A stretch of 64,000 nt of DNA, from positions 33,710 through 97,709 of the forward strand of contig JAEUQU010000001.1 of assembly GCA_016789455.1 (NCBI GenBank). Direction: 5' to 3'. The notes under the pieces were generated by a model, which saw only the letters and a list, made by a program, of their open reading frames with translations, did no database searches and had not been told where the DNA came from. Below, in pieces: positions 2,704 to 42,938 of this stretch. The position numbers and the translations under genes are program-made. Position 1 is the stretch's first letter, and each line of letters starts with the position of its first letter. The DNA comes from Candidatus Saccharimonadota bacterium. Lineage in GTDB: Bacteria; Patescibacteriota; Saccharimonadia; Saccharimonadales; Saccharimonadaceae.

Positions 2704-3213
2704 TCAGCCGGCCTGCCGCAGCAACAACGGGAAGCGTCGCCAGCGGCGCAGCTGCTGCGTAGAATACCACTGCAGCAGGATGACCACGATGCCTCCCGCC
2801 AGCGCGGCCACCAGGTCCATCGAGTCGAAGATGTCGGTGTCGGGCGCGCCCAGCCAGCGAAGGATGATGCCGGGGTCAAAGCCGCCATCCCTGTCCCAGC
2901 CCATGTGGTCCTCGAGCTCGATGTAGAAGCCGTGCAGCGTGCCGAGCAGCACGATGACCATGTGTAGGTTGGTCTGGAATCTCACGGCCCTGTCACTGCC
3001 CTGCTGCCGGTGGCGGCGCGGCGTCAGCAACGCGATGAACGTGGAGAAGATGGCCGTGAAGAAGGCAGGGTAGCCAAAGTCGGCCATGTGGTGGCGCAGC
3101 AGCCGCGGCAACCAGTACCACTCCACCAGATACACACGGAAGGCGAACGCCAGCACGGCCAGTAGCAGGATGGCGGCGTACGGCCAGTTGATACGGGGTG
3201 AAGGCCGGGCCAT
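2704..3213 (-). CDS. hypothetical integral membrane protein
   Basis: 169-aa ORF with about 4 hydrophobic segments. GAAAGGA lies upstream of the ATG on the minus strand. No family recognised with confidence. Confidence 0.5.
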   Translation of the reverse strand: MARPSPRINWPYAAILLLAVLAFAFRVYLVEWYWLPRLLRHHMADFGYPAFFTAIFSTFIALLTPRRHRQQGSDRAVRFQTNLHMVIVLLGTLHGFYIELEDHMGWDRDGGFDPGIILRWLGAPDTDIFDSMDLVAALAGGIVVILLQWYSTQQLRRWRRFPLLLRQAG

Positions 3214-3279
3214 GACCGGGGTCCTTTCGGGTCGGGGACGGGTGCGGGATGCCTAGGGTATAGTGTAGCGCTTCTGCCT

Positions 3280-5345: not shown

Positions 5346-6464
5346 ATGCAACTCATCCGCACCCTCTTCGGCCTCCGGTCCATTTATGTTAAGCAGACCG
5401 TGGAGCGGATGCTCTATATATACGTATTGGTGGCGGTCGGCGTCTGCCTGCTGGTAGACATCGCGGTCGATAACAACCTGCCGTACACCACCATCTACGG
5501 CCTGGTCGCCATTGCCGCTTATGCCCTGCTCCGCTCCATTCTGCGTACCTTCATCGTCAACCGCTACGTGCGCCGCTACTCAGCTTCTTTACTCAGCGTT
5601 CCGGCGGCCACCGGTACCGCCAGCACCTCTATCGATATCGAGCTGAACGAAGTCGACCGCATCCACCCCATCGCCACCTTCGGCGATGCCCGGGTCATCC
5701 TGGCTGCCTTTGATTTTTATGGTAAATCCAAGGACCACGAGTACCTGGCCCGCCAGGCGTTCTATGTGGTCTGCGAACTGCCGCTGCGGCGGGTCTTGCC
5801 GCACATCGTCTTTGACAGCAAGCGGGCTAAGCGGTCACAGTTCAAATACTTGTATCTGCGCTCGCAGCGCTTCTCCGTGCAGGGTGCCTTTGATGATATC
5901 TTTGACACATATGTGCCGGATGGCTACCACATCGATTCACTCAGCTTTGTCACCCCGGAAGTCATGCAGGCGATGGTTGAGGCCAGCCGCTACGACATCG
6001 AAATCATCAACGACAAGCTGCTGCTGTACGCACCCTTGATTGACGAGCGCGAGATCGAGGGATTTGCCGCGCACGCCCGTGCCATCGCCCAGCACCTCAA
6101 CGACAACATCGACACCTACCGCGACGACCGCCTGACCGGCAAGGCCCGCAAGACCAGTGTGACCTTGTTTGCGCGGACGCTGCTACGCAATCCGCTGAAG
6201 TTCTTTGTGGCGGCGGGCGGCTTTGGGCTGGTTGCGCTGACTATCATTATCATCGCGCTGGTGGAGTATCCCGAAGGGGCGTTTGACCTTATCTTTAATC
6301 AGTTGACGCTGGTGATTTACATCGGGCTGTTTGCCAACCTGATGCAGGCCCTGAGCATCCGGCGGGAGAATGAGAAGCTGCAGGCGAGCTACCGGGTGAT
6401 TTTGCAGGGTGGGACGAGTGGGTTGAATCCGTATCTGAAGAAGCGGGTAATGAGAAGTAAATAG
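5346..6464 (+). CDS. hypothetical membrane protein (2 N-terminal and 2-3 C-terminal TM segments around a soluble core)
   Basis: 372-aa ORF. The hydrophobic N-terminus is MLYIYVLVAVGVCLLV / IYGLVAIAAYALL and the C-terminal segment is FFVAAGGFGLVALTIIIIALV. The central domain is unrecognised (possibly DUF3137-like, not verified). Confidence 0.55.
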   Translation: MQLIRTLFGLRSIYVKQTVERMLYIYVLVAVGVCLLVDIAVDNNLPYTTIYGLVAIAAYALLRSILRTFIVNRYVRRYSASLLSVPAATGTASTSIDIELNEVDRIHPIATFGDARVILAAFDFYGKSKDHEYLARQAFYVVCELPLRRVLPHIVFDSKRAKRSQFKYLYLRSQRFSVQGAFDDIFDTYVPDGYHIDSLSFVTPEVMQAMVEASRYDIEIINDKLLLYAPLIDEREIEGFAAHARAIAQHLNDNIDTYRDDRLTGKARKTSVTLFARTLLRNPLKFFVAAGGFGLVALTIIIIALVEYPEGAFDLIFNQLTLVIYIGLFANLMQALSIRRENEKLQASYRVILQGGTSGLNPYLKKRVMRSK

Positions 6465-6492: not shown

Positions 6493-9400
6493 CTACTCTC
6501 CCATGACCACATCCACCCAATAGTTATTCCCATTGAACGAACTCTCCGGGAAGCCGCCCCCATACCGGAACACCCCGCCGCCAGCCTGGGCCGTCAACGG
6601 GCCGTTGGTGAAGGCTGCGTTCAGGCCGCCAGCCGTGTAGCTGTAGTGGCCGGCCGTGCTGCGATACGAAGCAGTATAGGTAGCATTAGCCGTGATGGCG
6701 ATTGGCGTAGCGAAGGTAGCCGTCTGCCAGCCGCTGGCAGTTTCCGTGCCGGTGGTTGCCGTGCCGAGCGGCGCGCCGGCAGCGTCCCAAAGCGTCACGG
6801 TGTGGCTGGTGAGCGTATCGGCCGGGGATTTGTAGAACGTGATGGCTTTGACGCTGCCGTTCTGGCTGCTGGCGAACTTCAATCCCAGTTCCACGTCGTT
6901 GTCGGCGGCGGCCGAGACGGTCTGTGGCTGTGGCGCCCAGAGCGAGAAGACGTTGGCGCCGGTGGTGAAGCTGCTGGAGTATGCACTGGCCAGGGCCACG
7001 CCGTTCGCATCCTTCACGCCGGTAGAGACCTGGACGGTATAGACGGTTTCCGGGCTCAACGAGGCGTTCGGGTTGATGGTGATCCTGTTGCTGGCTGTGG
7101 CGTAGCTGACAGCGGCAGGTACCGGCGTGGTGCCATTCAGCAGCTGGACATTAGTACTGTTGACGGTGCTGGCGTCCAGCGGCTCACTGAAGGTCAGCTC
7201 AATGTTGCCGCCTGGCGCGACGTTGGTAGCACCGGCCGCGGGCGACACCGTGGTGACGGTCGGCGGCGTCACATCCTGGCCATAGGTGGCAGCATAGGCA
7301 CCGCTCGTCACTGGGAAGACGGCATAGGCGACGCCCTTCATCGTCTCGGTATCGAAGCTGACGTTCGTACCGTCCTTTTGCAGGCTCAGCAGCGTGCCGT
7401 TCTTGGAACTCAGCGGCAGCAGGGCGCGGCCCATGGAGCGCAATTTAGCGTCCATAGAGGCAGTGAAGTTCAGGGTTGAGCCGTTCCAACTGGTACCGGT
7501 GAAGTACGAAGCATTGCGGCCATCAGTCCAGTCCAGCAGCTGCTGGCCGGAGACCAGCGGCACGCCGCGGGATTTGGCGGCCTGCACCAGCTGGCGGTCA
7601 AACTGGTCGGAGTAGTCGTAATGCGTGCCGAGTGCGCCGTAGAAACCTTCCGGCCCCAGCGCCCTGTCCAGCTGCAGGTTGATGTTACCTGGGAAGGATT
7701 GGCCGCTTTCATTGACCAGGTGCGAGGGCAGCTGATAGCTGTCGATAAGGCTGCCATCGGTGTCGGCAAAGCGCATGTTCAGGCCGCTGCCGGTCATGAA
7801 GCCCGGGCGGTTCTGGACCCAGCTGCCGGGCCAGTAGTAATAGTTGAGGTCGAGGCGCAGGCCCTTGTCGACACCGATCTTGGCGGCATCGGCATACGTG
7901 CTCCAGGCAATGCAGTGGATGCGGTTGACGCGCTGCACCGGCAGGCTGGCGTACTTGGCGCGGAAGGCAGCCAGGTCGCTGTCGTAGGCAGCGCTGAGCG
8001 AGGCAGGCGTCCAGTTGTTGCAGCCGGTGCTGGCGTGGACACCAAAGTCGAAGCCTTGGGCGTGATAGCCGGCGGCCTGGGCGTCGGTCAGCGGCGTGTC
8101 GGTGTAGATGAGCGAGGTGGAGCGGACGCATTCCCAGTCTGCCACCGAGCAGCCAGGGGCGCTTTGGGCCAGCTGGTAGTCCAACGCGGAGACAGTGCCG
8201 TTGCCGGTGGCGTGGTCGTCGGCCACCATCACCATGACGGCTTTTTTGTTGTACGGGAAGTAGGATAGCTTTGGCAGCGGCTTACGGTCTTTGTTGACCT
8301 CGGCGATCAGGTTGGCCAGCAGGCGCTGTTGTTCGTCGGCCTGCGGGATGGCAACTTTATTGAGGTTGACGTAGTCTGGCTGCAGGTCACCGGCTTTGGC
8401 ACCGTAGAACAGATCGTTGGGACGGATGACGGAGTTGCCATCGCGCTCGTCGCCGGACCAGGCCGGGTTACCCTGGTGCATCAGCACGATGGAGCGGGCC
8501 AGATCGTAGGTAAAGGCGGCTGCCTGCCCGCCGTTACTGCCCACGGAGCGCACGGTCACGGCCGGATTGGTAGTGGCGGTAGTGCCGTTGCTGTAAAGTG
8601 TGGCCACCGTGGCGGTACCGTTGTTGGCCGAGTAGCGGTCGGCGACGCCGTGGTATTGGATGGTCTCGTCGACGATGCCGGCACCAGGCGCAGTGCTCGT
8701 GTTCACCTTGAGATAGGCATCAGACAGCAAAGCCGACTGGTCGGTCAGGCCCAGCAGGCCGGCCAGCTTCTTGTCCGGGCGCATGGCAATCAGGTTACCG
8801 CCAGAGTTCACCCAATTGCTCAGGCTGCTGACCTGTGAATCGGTAAGGGTCATATCGCCAAGAATGGCAACATCGTAGTTGGCCAGCATTGTGCTGTTGA
8901 CCGCGCCGATCTCGACGGTCTTGAAGGAGTTGAGGCCTTCGGCGCGCAAGATCTCACTGTAGTAGGCGCTGAACGGCTGACCGGCCTTGGTGATGACCAG
9001 GATGGGGCCGTCGTGGCCTTGCGCCAGCGGGTCAACGGCACCGGCGGTGGTGGCTTGGGTGGTAAAGCTCCAGGTGTAATCGGCGGCCAGGGCATTACCG
9101 GCAGCGTCCTTGATGGCGGTAGTCAGGGTGACGGTATACTGCGTGCCCTGCTCCAATGCGGCGGTCGGGGTCAGGCTTATCTTATTGGCAGCGGCATCAT
9201 AGCTGACGGTAGCTGGCACCACGGCATTCTGGGCATTACGCAGGACTACGGATGAAGCCGTGACGGTCGAGGCGGTCAGCGCCTCATTGAAGGTAGCGGT
9301 AATAGTGGCATCGGTGGCCGCATTGGTGGCACCACCCGTCGGCGTGGCTGCAGTGACGGTCGGGGCGGCGTTATCCAGCGGCACCGAGATGACATCCACC

Positions 9401-23038: not shown

Positions 23039-23114
23039 CGGGGTGTGGCGCAGTTGGTAGCGCGCGGCGTTCGGGACGCCGAGGTCGTCCGTTCGAGTCG
23101 GATCACCCCGACCA
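23039..23114 (+). tRNA. tRNA-Pro (anticodon CGG)
   Basis: Sequence CGGGGTGTGGCGCAGTTGGTAGCGCGCGGCGTTCGGGACGCCGAGGTCGTCCGTTCGAGTCGGATCACCCCGACCA. The anticodon stem CGGCG/CGCCG is perfect, the loop is TTCGGGA, C1-G72 is present and CCA is encoded. Confidence 0.9.
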
Positions 23115-33454: not shown

Positions 33455-34225
33455 GTGAAACCGACTTTTACTACTACACGCCTGACCATCCCCACATCCG
33501 GCGCGCCCTATCATATCGATGTCCGCACACTAAAGCCGGCCCGGCCCGGCGGACGCAGTTTTATTCTTATCCATGGCATCGGGGTATCCGGCCGATACTT
33601 CATGCCGCTTGCACTGAAGCTGGCACGGCACCACACGGTATACGTACTTGATCTGCCGGGGCATGGCGACACGCCCAAGCCGGCGCGGGCGCTCGACATA
33701 AGACAGCTGGCCACGGTGGTAAATGCTTTCGTACATCACCAGCACATCAGCCGGCCCATTCTCGTCGGTCATTCCATGGGCTGCCAGATTGCCGCCAAAG
33801 CCATTGAGCTGGCACCGCGCCTGCATGGCGGCATCATATTGCTGTCACCCACCGTCAACCGCTACCGGCGCAATCGTCTCCTGCAAGCATATAGCCTGCT
33901 TTGCGATGGGCTACGCGAGCCTTTGCGGGTCAACCTGATAGCTTTTGGTGATTACCTGCAGTTTGGCCTGGCGCGCTACCTGCGCACTTCAAGCTTTATG
34001 ATGCGGGATCGGCTTGAGCAATCCATCCGGCACTGCCCGTTGCCGGGACTGATCGTGCGGGGCGGCCGTGATCCTATCACTTCGGACCGCTGGTTGGATT
34101 ATCTTTGCCGCAGTAACCCCCGGTTCACGCCAGTCAGACTGAATGACGGGCCGCACGTCATCCAATACACGCATGCCGTAGAGCTGGCGGACATCTGTGA
34201 GGGGTATGTGTTGTCTTTAGAGTAG
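33455..34225 (+). CDS. alpha/beta-fold hydrolase
   Basis: FILIHGIGVSGRYF (oxyanion region), nucleophile elbow VGHSMGCQIA, and a late DGPHVIQ His. The start codon is GTG. Confidence 0.7.
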   Translation: MKPTFTTTRLTIPTSGAPYHIDVRTLKPARPGGRSFILIHGIGVSGRYFMPLALKLARHHTVYVLDLPGHGDTPKPARALDIRQLATVVNAFVHHQHISRPILVGHSMGCQIAAKAIELAPRLHGGIILLSPTVNRYRRNRLLQAYSLLCDGLREPLRVNLIAFGDYLQFGLARYLRTSSFMMRDRLEQSIRHCPLPGLIVRGGRDPITSDRWLDYLCRSNPRFTPVRLNDGPHVIQYTHAVELADICEGYVLSLE

Positions 34226-34227
34226 GG

Positions 34228-35160
34228 CTATTGGGGCAACAGCCGGGTCACTACTTCGACGAACGGTATAGAGTAATGGTCAATGCCCGCCGGCGTCTCA
34301 ATTGACGTCTCAAAACCTTTTTCCCGATAATACGCTTCACCCTCTTTTGCGTCAGACAGGGCGTCGTAGCCGTCGGACGCGTTAGCTGCGACATCCTCCT
34401 GGCCGGTATACCACTTCATAGTGAAGGAATTGATGAACTCTTGTGACTGCGCCGCGCCCTGACCGCTATACGGCCGGCCACCGCCGCCAAAGGCGATGGA
34501 ACCGCCGCCACAGAACAGGTCGGAGTGGCCGTGCACCAAAAACGAGGTGATAAATACCGAGCCGCCGGAGTAGCCGATAAGCCAGGCGTTGCTGCGGTTG
34601 ATGTTGTATTTGGGGTAAATTTCATTTTCGAGGAAGTCGCGGACCCATTCGGCATTAGTGCCGCCGTCTTCCCACCAGGTGACCGTGCCGCTATCGGGCG
34701 TGCGGATGGCAATCAGCAGCATTTCGCGCTGCTTGGCCTGCTCGGCGTAGCCCTCCAGTGTGCCCTCGCGCAGGTTGTCAAACTCTTCGGCGCCGTCGCC
34801 GTGGAACTGCAGCATCAGGCCGAGTGGTTTGTCGGTCGGCAGGCCTTGGCCAAAGAGGTGATACTGGGCAGTGCCGGCGCTGCCGGAATAGCTTTGGTCC
34901 GTGGCGTCGGTCAGCGTGCCGCCGGTGCCGTTAGTAGCGCAGCCCTGGGCGACCGGCGGGGCCGCACCCATGAATGACAGTGCTTTGCTGGCTGAGGCCG
35001 ATGGATCGTTTTGTACGCTGGTGCCGTTGGGCGTGGCGTCTTCTGCTTCAATGCTTTTGGTGACGCCTGCGGCATAAGCAAAAGCCAAGATTATACCGGA
35101 TACAAGGACGATGGCCGCCAGCGAGACGGCGATTTGCAGTTTTAGTGTTTTCATCTGCAA
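34228..35160 (-). CDS. secreted esterase (alpha/beta hydrolase, PHB-depolymerase/feruloyl-esterase-like)
   Basis: Signal peptide MQMKTLKLQIAVSLAAIVLVSGIILAFAYAAG and nucleophile elbow LIGYSGGSVF. The overlapping ORFs are judged spurious. Confidence 0.6.
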   Translation of the reverse strand: MQMKTLKLQIAVSLAAIVLVSGIILAFAYAAGVTKSIEAEDATPNGTSVQNDPSASASKALSFMGAAPPVAQGCATNGTGGTLTDATDQSYSGSAGTAQYHLFGQGLPTDKPLGLMLQFHGDGAEEFDNLREGTLEGYAEQAKQREMLLIAIRTPDSGTVTWWEDGGTNAEWVRDFLENEIYPKYNINRSNAWLIGYSGGSVFITSFLVHGHSDLFCGGGSIAFGGGGRPYSGQGAAQSQEFINSFTMKWYTGQEDVAANASDGYDALSDAKEGEAYYREKGFETSIETPAGIDHYSIPFVEVVTRLLPQ

Positions 35161-35240
35161 TTACTATAGCATGGCGGTGTGGTCATGCTCACATTGCCAG
35201 ACTAAGGAAACATGCTATTATATGGCGGTCGTGACCACTT

Positions 35241-35534
35241 GTGCCCGCACGGCACACAAAGCGAAAGGGGCATGCGCCCATGCAAAGAACGACCGTACGT
35301 ATCTGGTGGCGCGCCATGGGGCCCGGAGAACGGGCACTCATCGGACTCGTCGCCTTCACGCTGTTGTCGATCTCCATCTCGCTGATCCTGGCCTGGATGG
35401 GACACCCCTTCGGTGCGCAGTTCACCTCGATGGGCGGGTTCCTTATCTCCTTCGTGGTGGCAGGGCTGTACCTCGAGTACAAGAGGCGACGGCGCACCGG
35501 CGGGTCCGGCGACAACACCAGTTCAGGCGGGTAG
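35241..35534 (+). CDS. possible small two-TM membrane protein
   Basis: 97-aa GC-rich ORF with segments ALIGLVAFTLLSISISLILAW and GGFLISFVVAGLYL and a basic tail RRRRTGGSG. The start is uncertain (an internal ATG lies at 35280). Other frames are open here as well. Confidence 0.3.
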   Translation: MPARHTKRKGHAPMQRTTVRIWWRAMGPGERALIGLVAFTLLSISISLILAWMGHPFGAQFTSMGGFLISFVVAGLYLEYKRRRRTGGSGDNTSSGG

Positions 35535-35535
35535 C

Positions 35536-35608
35536 CTGGCTGGGACGTGACCTAGGGTTAAGTAGGTTGGGAGGGTCCTGGCTGAAGTAGATTTTCTCCC
35601 CTAGGTCG
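35536..35608 (+). terminator. long-range hairpin plus T-run at the GC-to-AT transition (terminator and/or left island boundary)
   Basis: CGTGACCTAGGG (35536-35547) pairs with CCCTAGGTCGCG (35589-35600), including one G-U pair. GATTTTTTAA follows. Confidence 0.35.
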
Positions 35609-35638
35609 CGGATTTTTTAATATGCAATAGATGTATCG

Positions 35639-35644
35639 TATAAT
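35639..35644 (+). promoter_or_regulatory. -10 box TATAAT, 8 nt upstream of the RT ATG
   Basis: TATAAT, then AGCACGCA, then ATG at 35653. No Shine-Dalgarno, which is consistent with a leaderless transcript. Confidence 0.4.
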
Positions 35645-35652
35645 AGCACGCA

Positions 35653-36999
35653 ATGTTTGATGATATAGAGCAAGTTGTTGATAAAAAGTTTTGGCGAGTA
35701 ATTAATGATTTGAGAGTTCATGCAACTAGAAAACAAAGGAAGCCGTTTTTATTGGAGCTGGCGAAAAAGTTAAAGCATCATGAGTACTTTCCTAGCCTGC
35801 CATTGACAGTAAAAGAGGCAGACAAAGGATTTAGCGTAGCCCGCCAAATACCCATATTTAACCTCGAAGACTATAGTGTTTACTATTATTGCGTCCGCAA
35901 ACTGGAGCACGTACTCGCAAAGAACAGGATTAAAGGCACCTACGGCGGATGGTCAATGGGTGGCAAATTAAGAAACTTGGAGGATTTTGAAGATCCGGGC
36001 GATGAATACAGCCTCACATACTCTTACAATCCAGCTGCATGGAGTAAATACTATGGCGATTTTAACGCTAGGCTATACGGAAAAATTAAAGAAATTCAAG
36101 ATTCCAACAACCCACGCCAAGTCGTATTTGAGCTAGACATCGCCAATTACTATGACAATATTCAGCTTTCCATATTGGAGAACAAAATTAGACAAGATGC
36201 CGACTATTCAGAGTCAGGAATTTTAGACCTGCTCATGTATTTCCTCGGCTACAGCAATCGATTAGTAACCCATTACCAGAAAAGAAGCGTGGGAATTCCA
36301 CAAGATGCGTTTGGCGACTGCTCCCGCTTGCTGGCTAACTATTATTTACAAGACTATGACCTATTCATGAACGAACTGACCAAGCAGCATGGCGCCAGTT
36401 ACTTCCGCTACGCTGACGATCAAATTATTTTTGTTCCCAGTGATGCAGTCGGTCATTCAATCATTCAACTTGCCTCGCGAAAACTGGCTCAGATAGGGTT
36501 AAACTTTAACCAACAAAAAGTCGCAAGGCGTACTCTTGATGAGCTTTACACATATCGCTCCTTTGATATTAACGATATTTTTCAAGAACCAAACTCAAAG
36601 AAAGATGCTACAAAAGTGAATGAATTTGCATATAGAGCTTTTGAGGCGATAGATCAAGATGTCAGCTGTTTAAAGAACAGGGGTTATCCACTAATTAAAA
36701 GGCTACTTAATGCTGAGTATAATTTATTATCCCCTACATACAGAGCACGACTAATGGCATACGTTTTTGACAAAGAATTTACCAAAGCTGGAAAAGCGTA
36801 TAATTTTAGAATGGCATATGAAAAGATGTATGAAGACGAAAAGAATGGTTACCTCATTCTATTAAATGATCTTTTGGATAACTGCAGTCATTCTGCATTT
36901 CACTACGAGATATTAACCTTTTACAGACAACTAGGCCTAGATACAGAGAGGCTTGAAAATAGAATAGCTGAACTTAAAAAGGATATTTATTCTATATAA
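35653..36999 (+). CDS. stand-alone reverse transcriptase (prokaryotic RT; retron/Abi/DRT-like, class unassigned)
   Basis: 448-aa ORF. Motif A is VFELDIANYYDNI, motif B GIPQDAFGDCSRLLANYYL, motif C YFRYADDQIIFV (YADD) and motif E IGLNFNQQKV. It has an N-terminal extension of about 150 aa and a helical C-terminal region of about 130 aa with no recognisable extra domain. Confidence 0.85.
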   Translation: MFDDIEQVVDKKFWRVINDLRVHATRKQRKPFLLELAKKLKHHEYFPSLPLTVKEADKGFSVARQIPIFNLEDYSVYYYCVRKLEHVLAKNRIKGTYGGWSMGGKLRNLEDFEDPGDEYSLTYSYNPAAWSKYYGDFNARLYGKIKEIQDSNNPRQVVFELDIANYYDNIQLSILENKIRQDADYSESGILDLLMYFLGYSNRLVTHYQKRSVGIPQDAFGDCSRLLANYYLQDYDLFMNELTKQHGASYFRYADDQIIFVPSDAVGHSIIQLASRKLAQIGLNFNQQKVARRTLDELYTYRSFDINDIFQEPNSKKDATKVNEFAYRAFEAIDQDVSCLKNRGYPLIKRLLNAEYNLLSPTYRARLMAYVFDKEFTKAGKAYNFRMAYEKMYEDEKNGYLILLNDLLDNCSHSAFHYEILTFYRQLGLDTERLENRIAELKKDIYSI

Positions 37000-37061
37000 A
37001 ATATTTTTGTTATTACAGTCAAACTACAAACGGCTAAGATTATATTTTACTTTTTGCAGAG

Positions 37062-37194
37062 TGGGAGAAAGGACTCGATCTTGTTTTGCTCGCTCTACGT
37101 TCGCTTCTGTTTCACTTCAGCTCACCCGCTCGGCCAAGCATTGCATACGGAACGTCCACTGGACGTTCCGCCTATCGGTTCGAGTCTTTTCCCA
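37062..37194. repeat. imperfect inverted repeat enclosing about 100 nt with a perfect internal hairpin; both arms resemble the 3' end of tRNA-Pro(UGG)
   Basis: The left arm TGGGAGAAAGGACTCGA (37062-37078) pairs with the right arm TCGAGTCTTTTCCCA (37180-37194) as 7 bp, a bulge, then 6-7 bp. The internal hairpin is CGGAACGTCC-ACT-GGACGTTCCG (37148-37170). GAAAGGACTCGA (37067-37078) is identical to 42283-42294. GGTTCGAGTC (37177-37186) is identical to the tRNA-Pro(UGG) T-arm in sense orientation. Confidence 0.55.
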
Positions 37195-37202
37195 TGCTCA
37201 AA

Positions 37203-37244
37203 CAAGAAAATAGCTTAGACATGAATGCCTAAGCTATTTTCTTG
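37203..37244 (+). terminator. perfect 16-bp hairpin (putative terminator closing the RT transcription unit)
   Basis: CAAGAAAATAGCTTAG (37203-37218), a 10-nt loop, then CTAAGCTATTTTCTTG (37229-37244). The 3' arm itself supplies a T-rich tract, but there is no separate U-run. Confidence 0.4.
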
Positions 37245-37466
37245 GTCGCGCAAAGGCGAACAAGATTGAACCGGACTTTGCGGGTTTACTGCACTCCTTA
37301 CGCGAGGCATGGGACACAATAGCTTACCGCGAAATGACCGAGCCTATCCTAGTGACCATTGACTCTAACAGTAGTGAGTTCGTAGATAAGAACCCTCTCT
37401 ATGTATATTAGCTATCATCTACCACTGATGTATTAAACCTAATTGCAAGTAACAGGAATCGAAAAA

Positions 37467-37865
37467 ATGAAAGCAAACGATATGCAGAAACAGGCGGGGG
37501 TAAGCCCCAAAGGAACCCTCTCGCCCCTTGCACCACGCCAACAGAGATTTATGGAATACTATCTGAATGCTGACAGCCCCACATTTAGTAACTGCTACAG
37601 TTCGGCCGTGCGTGCAGGGTATTCCGAGCAGACGGCGCGTAATCTAACGCACTTACGACCAGCGTGGTTATCGGAAACTATCGGACAAAATGTAACCTTT
37701 GAGCCAGCGGATTTACTGGCGAAACTCGCACAAATTATTGATGACCGCAACGAGACTACCCATAATAAACTACGCGCAATAGATATGATGATGAAGCATT
37801 ACCATATGTTTGCCCCGACAAGCGTAACAGCCGTACAGCTGAATATTCAGAGTGTATTGGACTAA
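37467..37865 (+). CDS. phage terminase small-subunit-like HTH protein (Terminase_2/P27-type)
   Basis: PRQQRFMEYYLNADSPTFSNCYSSAVRAGYSEQTARN matches the TerS N-terminal pattern (F..EYL...N.T.AA..AGYS.KTA). The start is set at ATG 37467 with AGGAA upstream. The ORF is open from a TTG at 37443. Confidence 0.55.
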   Translation: MKANDMQKQAGVSPKGTLSPLAPRQQRFMEYYLNADSPTFSNCYSSAVRAGYSEQTARNLTHLRPAWLSETIGQNVTFEPADLLAKLAQIIDDRNETTHNKLRAIDMMMKHYHMFAPTSVTAVQLNIQSVLD

Positions 37866-38390
37866 CTAGAACGTGCGACCTTCTTGGCGGAACAGGTCTA
37901 TTACGGATGTTCGCTTTACACCCTGGTTGCTGCATACGTTAGGTATCCGAGGGTTTTTCTTGCTGATAGCTACGGTTTCACGCTCTGATGTAATTACTGT
38001 TAGCCCGCGTGCTTTTCCCAGAGCAACAACGCAAAGGTCGGCATAACTGCCGCGCTGCAAATCGTTATATATGGGGTACTCAGTTACAATAGGCCCCATG
38101 GCAGCCACCTGGTCATCGTCTAGCTCTACGAACATATACTCGTGCTGCTTAGCCCAGGCTTTAAGCGGGTCGTCTTTTTCCTTACCCTTCATTATTTCGT
38201 CGTGAACCGCCATAGGTGCAATAATCTCACCCGTCTCAATCTTCTTTTCGATAATTTCCCATTGTGTTTTAAAGACATCTTTACCATAAGGCTCATCAGG
38301 CCCTAGCTTCCAAAAATTGAAGAACACATTGGTATCAATACAATGCGTAGCTAGATTAGCCAGTAAACTAGAAGTGGCGGGGCGGGTCAT
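37866..38390 (-). CDS. DUF4411-like PIN-fold protein (putative toxin/nuclease partner of ImmA/IrrE)
   Basis: 174 aa. The pattern is CIDTNVFFNFW ... G.IIAPMAVHDEI ... ADLCVVALGKARGLTVITSE ... RIPNVC. It has a 4-nt overlap with the upstream ImmA/IrrE gene. Confidence 0.55.
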   Translation of the reverse strand: MTRPATSSLLANLATHCIDTNVFFNFWKLGPDEPYGKDVFKTQWEIIEKKIETGEIIAPMAVHDEIMKGKEKDDPLKAWAKQHEYMFVELDDDQVAAMGPIVTEYPIYNDLQRGSYADLCVVALGKARGLTVITSERETVAISKKNPRIPNVCSNQGVKRTSVIDLFRQEGRTF

Positions 38391-39535
38391 AATGCAATTC
38401 CACTACCGTTCCCCACCCGAGTTTTAAATTCTTGTAAATTTTTTACCGAAATACCCAACATACGCGACAATGTCCGTGAACCTATCCGACCATCTGCATA
38501 GGCGTCGAAAGCTTCTACTGTAAACCGCTTACTATTGTTAGCGAGTTTATTACGGTAATAATCGCCGCCTTTGCTTTTCTTCTTATGCTCTTCAGGTTTT
38601 TCATAGTCATCGCTATATTCGCCCTGGATTGTTTCGTACTGCTGCTTAGATATGTAGCCCAACGTATGCAGGCGTCGGTAAGCTGCAAGCCTGCTGACAC
38701 CGAATAACTTGCGCAAACGCTTAACTTGTTCACCTGAAGGCATACTGCCTACTAGGACGCCAAGTTCATTGGCTGCTTGACGGAACTTATTTTCAGGCAT
38801 TAGGAATGCGGCCGCGAAGCGATTACAGAGCGCTTCAACGTCGTCTGCATCATCGTGCAAATCACAGATACCACTTTGTTTATGTATAACGTGACAGAGT
38901 TCGTGCAACAGAGAGAAGAGTCGAGGCTGAGGTTCTTCTTTGGTGCTAAGTACAATAATGGCGCGGCTTTTCTTGATGATTGAAAAAGCTCGGACACTCT
39001 TTGTTTCCCAGCCCATCTCTGATATATACAGACCACGCTCAGTTAATAAGTCCTTCCAGAATCGCAGGGGGCCAAAGTCATCCGTAAGGCTTTGTAGTTT
39101 AACCTCGTTAGGCTTCAGACCTTCCCTAAATTGCTGGGCAAATAGTTCAGGGTTTCGGGATAAATCAGCAGTAGGGTTAGGTAATTCTACACCACTCCCA
39201 CTTGCTAACTCTGCGCCTGACTCGATAATATACTCTGCTGCATCCAGCGCGTTGAGCAGGTCAATATCTAAGACTTCTGTCCTGTTATGGCGGGAGCGGT
39301 TATCGTTGCCGTGCTTAGGAGCCTGTTCGGGAACCTGCAATAAAAATATAGTCCAGCGCTTCTTATAGGCTTTAGCAAGTTTTTCTAGTGTTACCATATC
39401 GATACTACTATCTTGCTGGTCATATTGCTCAAGTTCATCAACAGCAATACCCGTATCACGGCTCAGGCGCTCAATATCGAAACTTCTATTGAGTCGCAAA
39501 CTACGAAATACAGCCGCTTTTACCTTGATTTCCAT
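38387..39535 (-). CDS. Xre-type HTH fused to an ImmA/IrrE-family zinc metallopeptidase
   Basis: 382 aa. The N-terminal region is HTH-like (FRSLRLNRSFDIERLSRDTGIAVDELEQYD). The HEXXH motif is in LLHELCHVIHK, followed by FAAAFLMPE, which is typical of the COG2856/DUF955 domain. Confidence 0.75.
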   Translation of the reverse strand: MEIKVKAAVFRSLRLNRSFDIERLSRDTGIAVDELEQYDQQDSSIDMVTLEKLAKAYKKRWTIFLLQVPEQAPKHGNDNRSRHNRTEVLDIDLLNALDAAEYIIESGAELASGSGVELPNPTADLSRNPELFAQQFREGLKPNEVKLQSLTDDFGPLRFWKDLLTERGLYISEMGWETKSVRAFSIIKKSRAIIVLSTKEEPQPRLFSLLHELCHVIHKQSGICDLHDDADDVEALCNRFAAAFLMPENKFRQAANELGVLVGSMPSGEQVKRLRKLFGVSRLAAYRRLHTLGYISKQQYETIQGEYSDDYEKPEEHKKKSKGGDYYRNKLANNSKRFTVEAFDAYADGRIGSRTLSRMLGISVKNLQEFKTRVGNGSGIAL

Positions 39536-39593
39536 ACCCTAATTGTATTGCAAGCAACCGAGAGTCCCAAACAGACGCTATCTGCTATGTGTC

Positions 39594-40304
39594 CTAGTTT
39601 TGCTTTGCAGTCTGCCCATTCTCAACTTTATATCGAAGGTGGAGATATGAGCTGCTAAGAGTTTGAGCGCTTTGCAATGTTAGTGGCTTAAGCAGTTTCA
39701 AATCATCGTCCGTTGCAAGCGACTTGCCGCCAATAAGCGTTGCCGTGTCCTTGCCGCCCACGAGCAATGGAGCAACTACCAAAGAGACAAAATCAATAAG
39801 CCCGCTCCGTGCAAGTTCGGCATTTAGCTCACTGCCGGACTGGATAGTCATTTTTTCAATACCTTTTGCCTTTAATTTTGCAAATAGGTCGGCAAAATCT
39901 ATATCGTCATCGTAAGCTATTAGTTCAAGATTGGGGTCGCTCAAGCCTGCGGCAGGATGCAATTTGTTGGTCGTAACAATATATAGTTTATTTGTCCGCT
40001 TCAAAAGGTTCAGGACTCCGCGCTCGGTCAAGTGCGGCTTGCTATCGATAACCACGAAGTCTACGGGGATTTTTTCAATCTCTGTTTTGTCGTCATTCCA
40101 TCCTACCTTTGCCAATACACGCCCCGTATTAAGTGAACAGAGGTCAGTTTCTTGCTCTAAATCGTAATACTGCTGCAAACCCTCTTTTACGCCATTAACT
40201 CCTTGTAAGTCCTTATCAAAATCACGGTCATCGCTGGAACCTGTTGATATTTTGCCATCAAGGGACATAAGCATAAAAAGAGTTGTTATAGGTCTATCAT
40301 TCAT
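39594..40304 (-). CDS. RibD C-terminal-domain / dihydrofolate-reductase-like protein
   Basis: 236 aa. The pattern is TLFMLMSLDGKISTG ... SGSELNAELARSGLIDFVSLVVAPLLVGG ... LHLRYKV, typical of the RibD_C reductase fold. Confidence 0.6.
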   Translation of the reverse strand: MNDRPITTLFMLMSLDGKISTGSSDDRDFDKDLQGVNGVKEGLQQYYDLEQETDLCSLNTGRVLAKVGWNDDKTEIEKIPVDFVVIDSKPHLTERGVLNLLKRTNKLYIVTTNKLHPAAGLSDPNLELIAYDDDIDFADLFAKLKAKGIEKMTIQSGSELNAELARSGLIDFVSLVVAPLLVGGKDTATLIGGKSLATDDDLKLLKPLTLQSAQTLSSSYLHLRYKVENGQTAKQN

Positions 40305-40699
40305 AGCGGCAATTATAGCAGCTTCCGGTAAGTAAACACCGGGTTAGTGTTTATGCTTTACAATATTTCGTTGCTCTTGTATACCCCGCTTGTTACACTA
40401 TGTGCAGTAGACGCTATACGCGAAAAAAGTTTTCATCAACCGCAGTCCGCTTGAAGACAAGTGTGTAACCCGCCTCCAACGTGAGCCGGACGGGAACGGA
40501 CAGGAAGGGTCACTATGACGCTTTGGCAAACTTTTCGCGTACAAAACAAAAACCAATCATAACAGATAGAGCCAAAATGCTCATTGAGCTAGTTGTAATA
40601 CTGCAAAGGATTGACTTAAGTAGTCCGCTGGCTAAACTAAACGCAACCACGATAAGTGATAATAATGGTGGCCGCATCCTCCTATAACAGGGGTGAAAA

Positions 40700-40708
40700 T
40701 GGTATAAT
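40700..40708 (+). promoter_or_regulatory. extended -10 box TGGTATAAT, 8 nt upstream of the recombinase ATG
   Basis: TGGTATAAT, then ATACTCAG, then ATG at 40717, with no Shine-Dalgarno. Confidence 0.45.
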
Positions 40709-40716
40709 ATACTCAG

Positions 40717-42366
40717 ATGCAAGACGAGCCTCAATTAGATATGACTCAACTCAGATACGCCCTTTATGTGCGTAAATCTACTGATGATAAAGAGCGCCAG
40801 CAGCGCTCTGTCGATGACCAAATAGCCGAATGCGAAGACCTGGCAGCCAAACTTGGCGTGAAGCTCGCAAAGCCTTATTACAGGGATGACGGTTCAGCAA
40901 AGATACCTAACAACCCAAAACGCAACCGCTTTTACGATTTATTGGCAGACTTAGAGGCGGGCAAAGTGGATGGCATTATGGCGTGGCACCCTGACCGACT
41001 GGCGCGAAATATGCAAGACAGCGGCCTGATATTCGGGCTATTAGACAATCGACACATCAAAGACCTCCGGTTTGTCACACACTACTTTACCAACGATGCA
41101 AGTGGGCGAATGCTCTTGGGCATTCAATTTACACTCTCTACTTACTACTCGGCTAACTTATCGCAGAATGTAAAGCGTGGCCACCGGCGCGGATTGATGG
41201 AGGGCAAATCGTCAGGTGCGGCCAAGCACGGTTATGTGCGTACCGAGGAAGGTATTTATGTGCCCGACGGCAAGAACTATGAATGGGTTGTTGAGGCATG
41301 GCAACTACGCAAAGACGGCGTAGGACTGCGCGAAATTGCTGAGTACCTAAACGAGCAAGGTTACGGCCGAAAAATTAAAAGCAAAAAGTCGAAGAAATAT
41401 GGCCAAACCGTGAAGATGACGTACCAAATCCTGAGCGAAATGTTTAAGGACTCTTTCTACTACGGCTTGCTGAGCCAGACCAATAAAACCGTAGACCTTT
41501 GTGAAGCGTACGACTTTCAGCCAGCAGTCAGCAAGGATGAATGGGATGAAGTGCAGCGGCTCAGCAGAGCGCTGAGGATACCTTTGGTAGATAACCGACG
41601 TAAAACATTCTATCCGCTACGCGGTCTTGTTAAATGTGCGCTGTGTGAGCACACGATGATACCGGCCGCATCTAAATCGCGGGCGGGTACGCGCTACTTA
41701 TACTTCCGTTGCGCAAATGAGGACTGCACGCGAGCCAAAAAGTCTATTAGAGCCAACGTCATATTCAGTTACATATATGATTTGCTTAAAGGCGGCCTGA
41801 ACTTTACTGAAAAAGATTACCAAACATACCGAGATGGCTTGGTGGCCGAAGCCGACAATGAACGACTACAAATCAAGACTGAGTTAAACAGCAAGCAAGG
41901 TGCGCTAAAAGCAACAAAGCGGCGCATCGACGAGCTGAGCAAGAAGATTATAAATTACGATAAAGAAAGCCGTATATGGCAGGTCAATGACGAGCAGCTA
42001 ACCACTCTCGTAAGTGATGAAGCCGACTTGAAGAAGCAAATCGCCGAACTCAAAGCTTACGAAGTAGACCCTGAGCGCGACGTGCTAAGCATTGAGCAAT
42101 TTTTAAACCTAGCAAAAGACGTTGGTCGTAAGGTGGAAGCGGCCGACACGGTGGCAAAAGACCACCTTGTGCAGTTAATCTTTTTAAACCTAGTCGTAGA
42201 CGAAGAAAAAGTAGTGTCTTATATCTTAAAAGAGCCGTTCAAAACGGCTCTTGAAAGTAAGGTTGTCTTAAATGGTCGGGGTGAAAGGACTCGAACCTTC
42301 GGCCTCGCGGTCCCAAACCGCGCGCGCTACCAACTGCGCCACACCCCGGACTTTTATATCTATTGA
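40717..42366 (+). CDS. large serine recombinase (resolvase domain + recombinase domain + zinc ribbon + coiled coil)
   Basis: YALYVRKSTDDKERQQRSVDDQ carries the catalytic Ser context. Also present are WHPDRLARN, a zinc ribbon CALCEHTM...FRCANEDC and a long coiled coil. The last roughly 30 codons (42273-42366) are antisense to tRNA-Pro(UGG). Confidence 0.85.
   Translation: MQDEPQLDMTQLRYALYVRKSTDDKERQQRSVDDQIAECEDLAAKLGVKLAKPYYRDDGSAKIPNNPKRNRFYDLLADLEAGKVDGIMAWHPDRLARNMQDSGLIFGLLDNRHIKDLRFVTHYFTNDASGRMLLGIQFTLSTYYSANLSQNVKRGHRRGLMEGKSSGAAKHGYVRTEEGIYVPDGKNYEWVVEAWQLRKDGVGLREIAEYLNEQGYGRKIKSKKSKKYGQTVKMTYQILSEMFKDSFYYGLLSQTNKTVDLCEAYDFQPAVSKDEWDEVQRLSRALRIPLVDNRRKTFYPLRGLVKCALCEHTMIPAASKSRAGTRYLYFRCANEDCTRAKKSIRANVIFSYIYDLLKGGLNFTEKDYQTYRDGLVAEADNERLQIKTELNSKQGALKATKRRIDELSKKIINYDKESRIWQVNDEQLTTLVSDEADLKKQIAELKAYEVDPERDVLSIEQFLNLAKDVGRKVEAADTVAKDHLVQLIFLNLVVDEEKVVSYILKEPFKTALESKVVLNGRGERTRTFGLAVPNRARYQLRHTPDFYIY
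42273..42348 (-). tRNA. tRNA-Pro (anticodon UGG)
   Basis: The minus-strand read is CGGGGTGTGGCGCAGTTGGTAGCGCGCGCGGTTTGGGACCGCGAGGCCGAAGGTTCGAGTCCTTTCACCCCGACCA. The anticodon stem is CGCGG/CCGCG, the loop TTTGGGA and the T arm GAAGG/TTCGAGT/CCTTT. CCA is encoded. Confidence 0.9.
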
Positions 42367-42455: not shown

Positions 42456-42938
42456 CTAGCCGCTGATGCGCTGATAGCCGTCGTCTTCTATCTCGCGTTG
42501 GCGGACCTGCTGCATATAGGCGCTCATCTGCTGGGCGAATTGTTCGACGGTCTGGAAGCGGTTACGCAGATCAGCCATCTGCTGTGCCGTGTAGTCAGCC
42601 ATCTGGGCGCCGCGCTGGGCGCCGACCACAGCCTGCTGCACTTGCTGCATCTGTTGTTGTAGCGCCTGGATCTGCTGCTGCAAGCCCTGTACCTGCTGTT
42701 GCATCTGCTGGGTCTGTTGTTGCAGTTCCTGAACGTTCTGGTGCGTGCTGTCGACACGCGGCTTGGCCTCTTCGACGTGCTGTCGGACACGCTGGACATC
42801 ATCGGTATCGCGCGACATGTTGGCAACCTGGGTACGCAGCTCCTGCAAGCTGTTACGGATATCGCTGAGCGTGTTTTTGACCGGGTTTGTGCTGTCGTTG
42901 ACGATTCGTTGGACGTCGTTGTAGTTCAATTCTGCCAT
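42456..42938 (-). CDS. glutamine-rich coiled-coil protein (hypothetical)
   Basis: 160-aa ORF with a central heptad-like run QNVQELQQQTQQMQQQVQGLQQQIQALQQQMQQVQQAV. It lies immediately downstream of rny on the same strand. Confidence 0.55.
   Translation of the reverse strand: MAELNYNDVQRIVNDSTNPVKNTLSDIRNSLQELRTQVANMSRDTDDVQRVRQHVEEAKPRVDSTHQNVQELQQQTQQMQQQVQGLQQQIQALQQQMQQVQQAVVGAQRGAQMADYTAQQMADLRNRFQTVEQFAQQMSAYMQQVRQREIEDDGYQRISG

Follow-up and report, generated by a model that had tools for sequence, protein, structure and literature searches.

The 64,000-nucleotide (nt) stretch of Candidatus Saccharimonadota DNA analysed here, which we call the window and to which coordinates refer, carries a structured non-coding element at 37043-37244, between a reverse transcriptase (RT) gene and an integrated mobile island. 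On balance, this element is probably debris of mobile DNA inserting at a tRNA-Pro gene, composed of two opposed copies of the tRNA tail and a terminator hairpin, and not an accessory of the neighbouring RT. Related loci with which the window was compared are labelled with L-numbers (e.g. L125). The parts of the element are as follows.

37043-37061: outer extension of the left palindrome arm, TATTTTACTTTTTGCAGAG, complementary to 37195-37212
37062-37078, minus strand: left arm, TGGGAGAAAGGACTCGA, read as a decayed direct copy of the tRNA-Pro(UGG) 3' end
37079-37147: interior of the stub, C/T-rich and weakly structured
37148-37170: perfect 10-bp hairpin, CGGAACGTCC-ACT-GGACGTTCCG
37180-37194: core of the right arm, TCGAGTCTTTTCCCA
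37177-37204, plus strand: right arm with its extension, read as an inverted (sense) copy of the full 25-nt tRNA-Pro(UGG) 3' end; adjoins the left arm of the following hairpin
37203-37218 and 37229-37244: perfect 16-bp hairpin with U-rich arms

The two arms, the 10-bp and 16-bp hairpins, a 68-aa open reading frame (ORF) with a TTG start at 37007-37213, and the 12-mer and 10-mer that the arms share with a tRNA gene were all found as a first-pass annotation of the letters had described them. The segment ACGTTCGC, named there as an alternative pairing partner for the 10-bp hairpin, is present as well, at 37097-37104 rather than at 37098-37105. No credible ORF lies in the element, and the stub interior (37079-37147) is without a notable ORF or a homologue in blastn and covariance-model searches of the related loci.

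That the element is structured beyond chance, as had been proposed, is borne out by its fold, its perfect hairpins and its inverted repeat. The predicted RNA fold of 37000-37260 has an energy of -83 kcal/mol, against -58.7 +/- 4.5 for dinucleotide shuffles (z -5.4, with 0/200 shuffles as good), and is built from a long-range stem joining 37059-37078 to 37180-37198 together with the perfect 10-bp and 16-bp hairpins. The window has seven perfect hairpins of at least 10 bp, compared with 0-2 in ten shuffles; the element contains two of them, and one more stands beside tRNA-Pro(UGG). The inverted repeat exceeds the length first given for it, in that 37043-37078 aligns with 37180-37212 at a score of 29 (maximum of 25 in 1000 shuffles); its left and right arms are imperfect and differ by indels. 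When the core was folded by itself (37055-37200), z was -3.7 on the plus strand and -3.0 on the minus strand. As the core folds almost equally on both strands, the structure is that of a palindrome at the DNA level, with little strand preference.

The source to which both arms point is the tRNA-Pro(UGG) gene at 42273-42348 on the minus strand, on the far (attR) side of the island. The left arm and the plus-strand image of this gene have an exact 12-mer in common (42283-42294), and the right arm shares the 10-mer GGTTCGAGTC with it in sense orientation. Scanning the whole window with the 28-nt 3' end of tRNA-Pro(UGG) placed the arms, at scores of 14 and 13, first and second after both real tRNA-Pro genes; a real tRNA-Gly scored 12, the background was 5.3 +/- 1.2, and none of 500 local shuffles reached the arm scores. 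The tRNA likeness, for which the first-pass annotation had proposed shuffled controls, is thus above chance. The left arm has the orientation of the tRNA gene itself and matches the segment from T-loop to acceptor over 16 nt with one mismatch. Taken with its extension, the right arm can be aligned to all 25 nt of the tRNA end, and it passes without a break into the left arm of the 16-bp hairpin. Aligned with the reverse complement of the hairpin right arm plus the tRNA end, 37177-37222 scored 49 (shuffle maximum 20), a figure to which the hairpin part contributes trivially as a palindrome; in the mirror-copy test for the window, 1/500 shuffles did as well. The right arm is read not as the end of a second island but as the tRNA end mirrored across the hairpin. 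A derivation from the displaced end of the plus-strand tRNA-Pro(CGG) was rejected, the UGG tRNA matching far better than CGG. At 35594-35612, on the left edge of the RT cassette, a further tRNA-like candidate (TTTCTCCCC, GGTCGCG) was dropped, its tRNA-scan score being 7 only.

That same tRNA gene holds an integrated island, and neither arm is more than 200 nt from the island end. This island and its surroundings comprise the following features.

37243-42272, plus strand: integrated island of ~5 kb, with a G+C content of ~46% against ~60% in the host
37243-37272, plus strand: left attachment site (attL), consisting of the 6-nt repeat TGGTCG (37243-37248) and the island P' arm
37467-37865, plus strand: terS-like gene, following a leader; weak Terminase_2 match
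37866-38390, minus strand: DUF4411/PIN gene
38387-39535, minus strand: IrrE/HTH gene, encoding an HTH-IrrE protein (M78 peptidase) with PADLOC RmrA-like matches (E = 4.5e-23)
39594-40304, minus strand: RibD_C gene
40717-42366, plus strand: large serine recombinase (LSR) of 549 aa with Resolvase, Recombinase and zinc ribbon domains, integrase-type
42230-42252: 10-bp hairpin at the right end of the island, now 3' of the tRNA gene
42273-42348, minus strand: tRNA-Pro(UGG)

The island is integrated at the CCA end of tRNA-Pro(UGG), with attL at 37243. Three observations mark this position: i) homology between the window and L106, L125 and L126 begins exactly at TGGTCGCGCAAA (37243); ii) the repeat TGGTCG is the reverse complement of the terminal CGACCA of the tRNA and recurs at 42273-42278, and among the related islands the short repeat tracks the target tRNA, being TGGTCG at tRNA-Pro, TGGTGCG at tRNA-Leu and TGGTGA at tRNA-Glu; and iii) the P' arm in the window holds a T-loop-like motif, TTGAAC, 5 nt further out than in the tRNA. 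In a motif scan the T-loop motif stood at position 19 from TGG in the tRNA and at position 24 in the island arm in 7/7 islands at tRNA-Pro or tRNA-Leu. The other four islands (L138, which has no assigned tRNA, and three tRNA-Glu islands) gave no motif in the island arm in that scan, and for these the same +5 offset (GGAAC vs CGAAC) was read from the sequences by eye only. A 5-bp offset reportedly distinguishes the half-site geometry of attP from that of attB in serine integrases, as Rutherford et al. 2013 are said to have found. The exact break in homology, the target-matched repeat and the 5-nt offset together identify 37243 as a genuine attL. The LSR accounts for the inner TGGTCG repeat and not for the outer arm, and no second integrase was found among the proteins of the window.

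Copies of a tRNA end outside an inner attL recur at other loci, which places the left arm in company. At L125 (tRNA-Pro) a 16/16 copy of the tRNA end lies 176 nt outside the inner attL; at L113 (tRNA-Glu) a 16/18 copy lies 167 nt outside; at L114 (tRNA-Glu) a 23/28 copy lies 185 nt outside; and in the window the left arm lies 181 nt outside attL. The copies in L125, L113 and L114 are each the best non-tRNA match in their own locus, and the outer copies follow the local tRNA, being Pro-like at tRNA-Pro and Glu-like at tRNA-Glu. They begin at the CCA end and stop in or just past the T-loop, which is the classical junction for T-loop-type integration. Between outer copy and inner attL the three loci hold non-coding stubs (L125, 6577-6752; L113, 6699-6865; L114, 5622-5806) that fold at z -3.9 to -5.0, and the stub interiors are mutually unrelated. 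The mirror copy is significant in L113 (5/500 shuffles) and not in L125 or L114. Such a stub is missing from at least seven other related islands, so it does not belong to the island proper. The stubs of the window and L125 were also compared, and homology was rejected: their global alignment scored 68 against 32 +/- 10, but a local alignment without anchored ends scored 22 against 17.9 +/- 2.7.

Duplicated tRNA 3' ends also stand 3' of unoccupied tRNA genes in other Patescibacteria. In L025 (~5930-6090) a tRNA-Arg(CCU) gene is followed by a 60-nt insert between perfect 20-nt repeats of its 3' end, with a perfect 10-bp palindrome inside, and in L015 (~7980-8132) a second, degenerate tRNA copy comes after a tRNA-Glu(CUC) gene. 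On the left flank of the L106 island, 5700-5788 shares homology with the right end of the L136-type island (3150-3259, comprising the recombinase 3' end and a hairpin), which makes it a decayed tandem insertion at the same tRNA-Pro. The stub in the window might likewise have been left by an older member of this island family, from its right end or its recombinase gene, but tblastn and blastn showed no similarity and this origin was discarded.

Direct-repeat att scars and the tandem accretion of islands at tRNA 3' ends, with T-loop and CCA-end sublocations, have reportedly been described by Williams 2002 and in the Islander work. The arrangement in the window resembles such scars in having a partial copy of the tRNA 3' end, in tRNA orientation, at the outer edge of foreign DNA, and in its several nested repeats with the older inserts decayed, for which L106 and L125 are direct parallels. 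It differs from them in three ways: the active integrase here is an LSR that crosses over at the CCA end and leaves a repeat of only 6-9 nt; the outer copy would imply a different, older T-loop event of which no integrase remains; and the extra inverted copy is absent from ordinary att scars. The left arm combines a same-orientation copy of the tRNA 3' end with a boundary of foreign DNA, the G+C content shifting at ~37060 and at 35600, and we read it as an outer, older att scar. The proposal that the arms were twin decayed att scars at the junction of two accreted islands thus came closest of the three original readings: both arms do seem to derive from tRNA-Pro, but only the left one is read as a scar, and the island junction lies at the foot of the hairpin, at 37243, and not at the arms.

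The 16-bp hairpin ends at attL and would thus have stood directly downstream of the tRNA gene before the island arrived. Its 3' arms are U-rich on both strands, and hairpins with U/A-rich flanks occupy the same place beside attL in L106, L113, L114, L116, L125, L127, L136, L137 and L138. It is probably a bidirectional intrinsic terminator, formerly of tRNA-Pro(UGG) and now also of the convergent RT transcript. Like known bidirectional Rho-independent terminators it is a perfect hairpin with U-rich flanks on both strands, set between the RT (plus strand) and the former tRNA 3' end (minus strand), and hairpins at the same position recur in at least nine related loci; unlike them it has a long stem (16 bp), A/T-rich and uncalled by a consensus scan, and its palindrome extends outwards into tRNA-derived sequence.

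Taken together, a course of events for the element can be proposed. It would begin with a native tRNA-Pro(UGG) gene with a hairpin terminator behind it. An older insertion with its junction in the T-loop would have pushed the original tRNA tail outwards, where it became the left arm, and would then have shrunk to ~100 nt. The terminator palindrome would next have been lengthened by an inverted copy of the tRNA tail, the right arm, for which we infer fold-back or template-switch repair as the most likely mechanism. The low-G+C RT gene would then have come to sit on the outer side, and the LSR island would finally have inserted at the CCA end. Only the hairpin probably works today, ending the RT transcript and insulating the RT from the island, and the remainder of the element would be passive in the RT 3' untranslated region (UTR), if it is transcribed. 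Because both arms are opposite-orientation copies of one tRNA segment, they are complementary by descent and the stem needs no selection; the arms thus probably pair through common descent and not through selected pairing.

Several observations weigh against this account of insertion debris. In blastn-short comparisons with the tRNA over the whole window, the arms reached E-values of 0.2 and 0.8 only, which agrees with the caution voiced at the outset that a bare 12-mer is not rare in 64 kb; with E-values this weak, the case for a tRNA origin rests on the ranking in the tRNA scan and on the site beside an island at the same tRNA. The left arm matches over just 16 nt with its one mismatch, and without gaps it agrees at 17/23 positions, or else a 5-nt deletion must be assumed. 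The presumed older insertion of T-loop type lacks an integrase. The consensus terminator scan gave no call at 37203-37244 and the hairpin stem is A/T-rich, so that the terminator role is drawn from position and shape. The order of events is a reconstruction: the four recovered contigs of the organism are 100% identical to the window, a homology search aimed at empty sites, with the 160-aa protein of the right flank as query, returned nothing, and exact-protein look-ups returned the same strain only. A private, lineage-specific use of the structure by this RT is, to judge from the sequence, conceivable. Finally, the lengths of the four stubs are oddly alike (167-185 nt) and each has a strong fold (z -3.9 to -5.4), and they could represent a defined element rather than random remnants.

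This likeness is the main argument for the strongest rival, in which the ~180-nt stub is a non-autonomous miniature integrative element, or a landing pad of tRNA-end mimics, that inserts at or beside tRNA 3' ends, with the hairpin-rich fold as part of its recognition, and beside which LSR islands settle. We regard it as unlikely. Four independent loci do carry strongly structured stubs of 167-185 nt between a tRNA-end repeat and an inner attL, inverted-repeat ends of 33-36 nt span 37043-37212, and in L025 the 60-nt insert sits between perfect 20-nt tRNA-end repeats beside an unoccupied tRNA. As in miniature inverted-repeat transposable elements of the Correia and ERIC types, the sequence is an intergenic stretch of ~170 nt whose terminal inverted repeats are imperfect and which forms a hairpin. 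Unlike those elements, it is single-copy in the sequences examined, neither the window nor 795 kb of related loci containing another, and no target-site duplication was observed. Its ends agree with the local tRNA, as would be expected of local duplication more than of an element that travels. The stub interiors are not homologous, and at least seven related islands lack a stub. Neither the related loci (795 kb) nor the rest of the window gave a match to a covariance model built from the element's fold. An arm-gap-arm pattern scan of viral and metagenome collections returned no copy, and a search of viral contigs for the exact 23-nt hairpin (37148-37170) gave five matches, all in unrelated high-G+C coding sequence.

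The element might alternatively be an independent small RNA gene, or a cis-acting 3'-UTR element such as a stabiliser or processing site, for which a tRNA-derived palindrome was co-opted; we hold this to be decidedly improbable. In its favour are the high stability of the predicted structure, a weak promoter-like site upstream (36974-37002) and a terminator-like hairpin closing the 3' end. The promoter count for the region, four found against 3.4 expected, is not above chance, however, the two strands fold nearly alike, and neither blastn nor the covariance model found a homologue. The Rfam scan that the first-pass annotation had proposed yielded nothing above noise: scans of 34000-39000 and of the element itself returned only sub-threshold matches of microRNA or terminator-like hairpin kind. 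ARAGORN found no tRNA in the element, and the Rfam tRNA model gave no match at E <= 10 in a 221-nt search of it, nor any for the L113 stub. To much the same degree we doubt that the ~170-185-nt stubs are functional tRNA-end-mimicking modules, serving as landing pads or decoys for Saccharibacteria serine integrases or as a minihelix-like RNA for the RT.

A role with the RT has in its favour the neighbourhood of the element, which starts 60 nt 3' of the RT stop codon.

35653-36999, plus strand: reverse transcriptase of group UG13b, 448 aa (PADLOC E = 6e-122), context and not part of the element

In this rival the element would be a lineage-specific non-coding RNA (ncRNA) in the RT 3' UTR, acting as template or primer for the UG13b RT through a tRNA-minihelix-like end. 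Its position fits, being on the RT strand and ahead of a terminator-like hairpin; one G-U pair favours the plus strand, as does the difference in z between the strands (-3.7 against -3.0); and RTs of UG2, UG28 and UG3+UG8 require adjacent ncRNAs (PMC9226505). Group UG13b itself is predicted to be defensive, and no ncRNA has been described for it (Mestre et al. 2022, PMC9226505). The likeness to the ncRNAs of retrons (msr-msd), DRT2, DRT9 and DRT3 lies in a structured non-coding stretch beside a defence-type RT and, for retrons, in a long-range closing stem that recalls the a1/a2 repeats. Unlike them, the element is downstream of the RT and is not conserved with the RT family, its arms come from the neighbouring tRNA, and analogous stubs stand beside islands without any RT.

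Comparison across the RT family likewise speaks against such a role. The set comprised 120 homologous proteins and 80 genome loci, plus contigs of the closest relatives. In a blastn search with 37001-37443, no counterpart was found in ~95 UG13b-related RT loci, and neither blastn nor the covariance model showed conservation of the stems in related RT loci. The relatives whose RTs are 72-73% identical (L001, L083-L090) have no room for the element, since a convergent gene ends 1-3 nt past the RT stop; in L100 the following gene begins 2 nt after it, and less than 60 nt lies downstream of the RT in 22/66 loci of the family. On any given side, non-coding DNA is shorter than 60 nt in about one third of UG13b loci, so that an obligatory flanking ncRNA for UG13b seems unlikely. 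The RT is a single-gene low-G+C insert (30-46%) in a host of ~60% G+C, and the G+C content breaks at ~37060 between this cassette and the element (53%), with the further shift at 35600. The neighbouring tRNA explains the arms, and neither Rfam nor the tRNA model, even in the 221-nt search space, recognises the element. The reading as an RT-associated ncRNA, one of three offered originally, is accordingly not supported by sequence comparison, and we give it slightly less credence still than a small RNA of independent function. A general habit of this RT of adjoining tRNA genes was also considered and rejected, a tRNA gene lying beside the RT in 7/85 loci only.

The third original reading, that the 100 bp at 37079-37179 are an invertible switch flipped by the island's serine recombinase, would draw on the flanking inverted repeats and on a serine recombinase encoded 3.5 kb away, but it is exceedingly improbable given the integrase-type architecture of that recombinase, real sites that are TGG-anchored with a distal motif at 19 (tRNA) or 24 (island arm) where the left arm has it at ~14, arms that differ by indels, and a single orientation in three independent assemblies, this last being weak evidence because assemblies report a consensus.

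Some further observations concern the RT group. The UG13b relatives sit in varied defence contexts, with GmrSD, ThsB-TIR, restriction-modification genes and an S24/LexA-like repressor nearby (L083, L089, L096, L098). In L083-L087, which come from five samples and carry an RT 73% identical, all contigs end at the same point, 266 nt past the RT stop, which suggests a repeat or a strain-variable junction there.

The island belongs to a family of Saccharibacteria islands of ~3-7 kb, found, besides the window, in L101, L106, L113, L114, L116/L119, L125/L126, L127, L129, L136, L137 and L138, whose integration leaves a 6-9-nt repeat. A recurrent order holds: a ~200-nt leader, the terS-like gene, variable cargo on the opposite strand, and an LSR ORF that runs into an opposite-strand tRNA gene. 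The targets are tRNA-Pro, tRNA-Leu, tRNA-Glu and tRNA-Arg, at the CCA end. The terS-like protein of the window (37467-37865) has ~100 relatives in Saccharibacteria, and queries of viral contigs with the single sequence and with an alignment returned no relative. In the window the LSR ORF reads across attR, its final ~31 codons running antisense to tRNA-Pro(UGG), and L101 and L106 show the same overlap; the C-terminus of the LSR should therefore differ between the integrated and the excised states. As for cargo, the DUF4411/PIN-like and HTH-IrrE pair (37866-39535) is, from its sequence, likely a toxin-antitoxin or defence pair, and related islands carry other cargo, including SocA/Panacea and HAD plus NUDIX genes. 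Beside the tRNA on the right flank, a 160-aa protein (42456-42938, minus strand) is called as a gene in three assemblies; it has no match at E <= 1e-10 in 5.8 billion proteins and is an apparent orphan.

The hot-spot region itself is rearranged between lineages. In the window tRNA-Pro(CGG) (23039-23114, plus strand) and tRNA-Pro(UGG) (42273-42348, minus strand) are convergent and 19 kb apart, and in L106 (10973-11417) the tRNA-Pro CGG and UGG genes are adjacent and divergent.

Att scars are familiar features, as are bidirectional terminators and tandem accretion at tRNA genes; what is unusual here is the mirror copy. The element illustrates how a striking 'structured RNA' can arise passively, from opposed copies of a tRNA tail beside a terminator that are complementary through their shared source, and it is a caution for ncRNA scans near tRNA integration hot spots. 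The analysis also removes a candidate ncRNA, tempting but without support, from the uncharacterised defence RT group UG13b. Perhaps the more valuable result is the island family, which supplies natural attP/attB pairs for tRNA-targeting serine integrases of an almost unstudied phylum.

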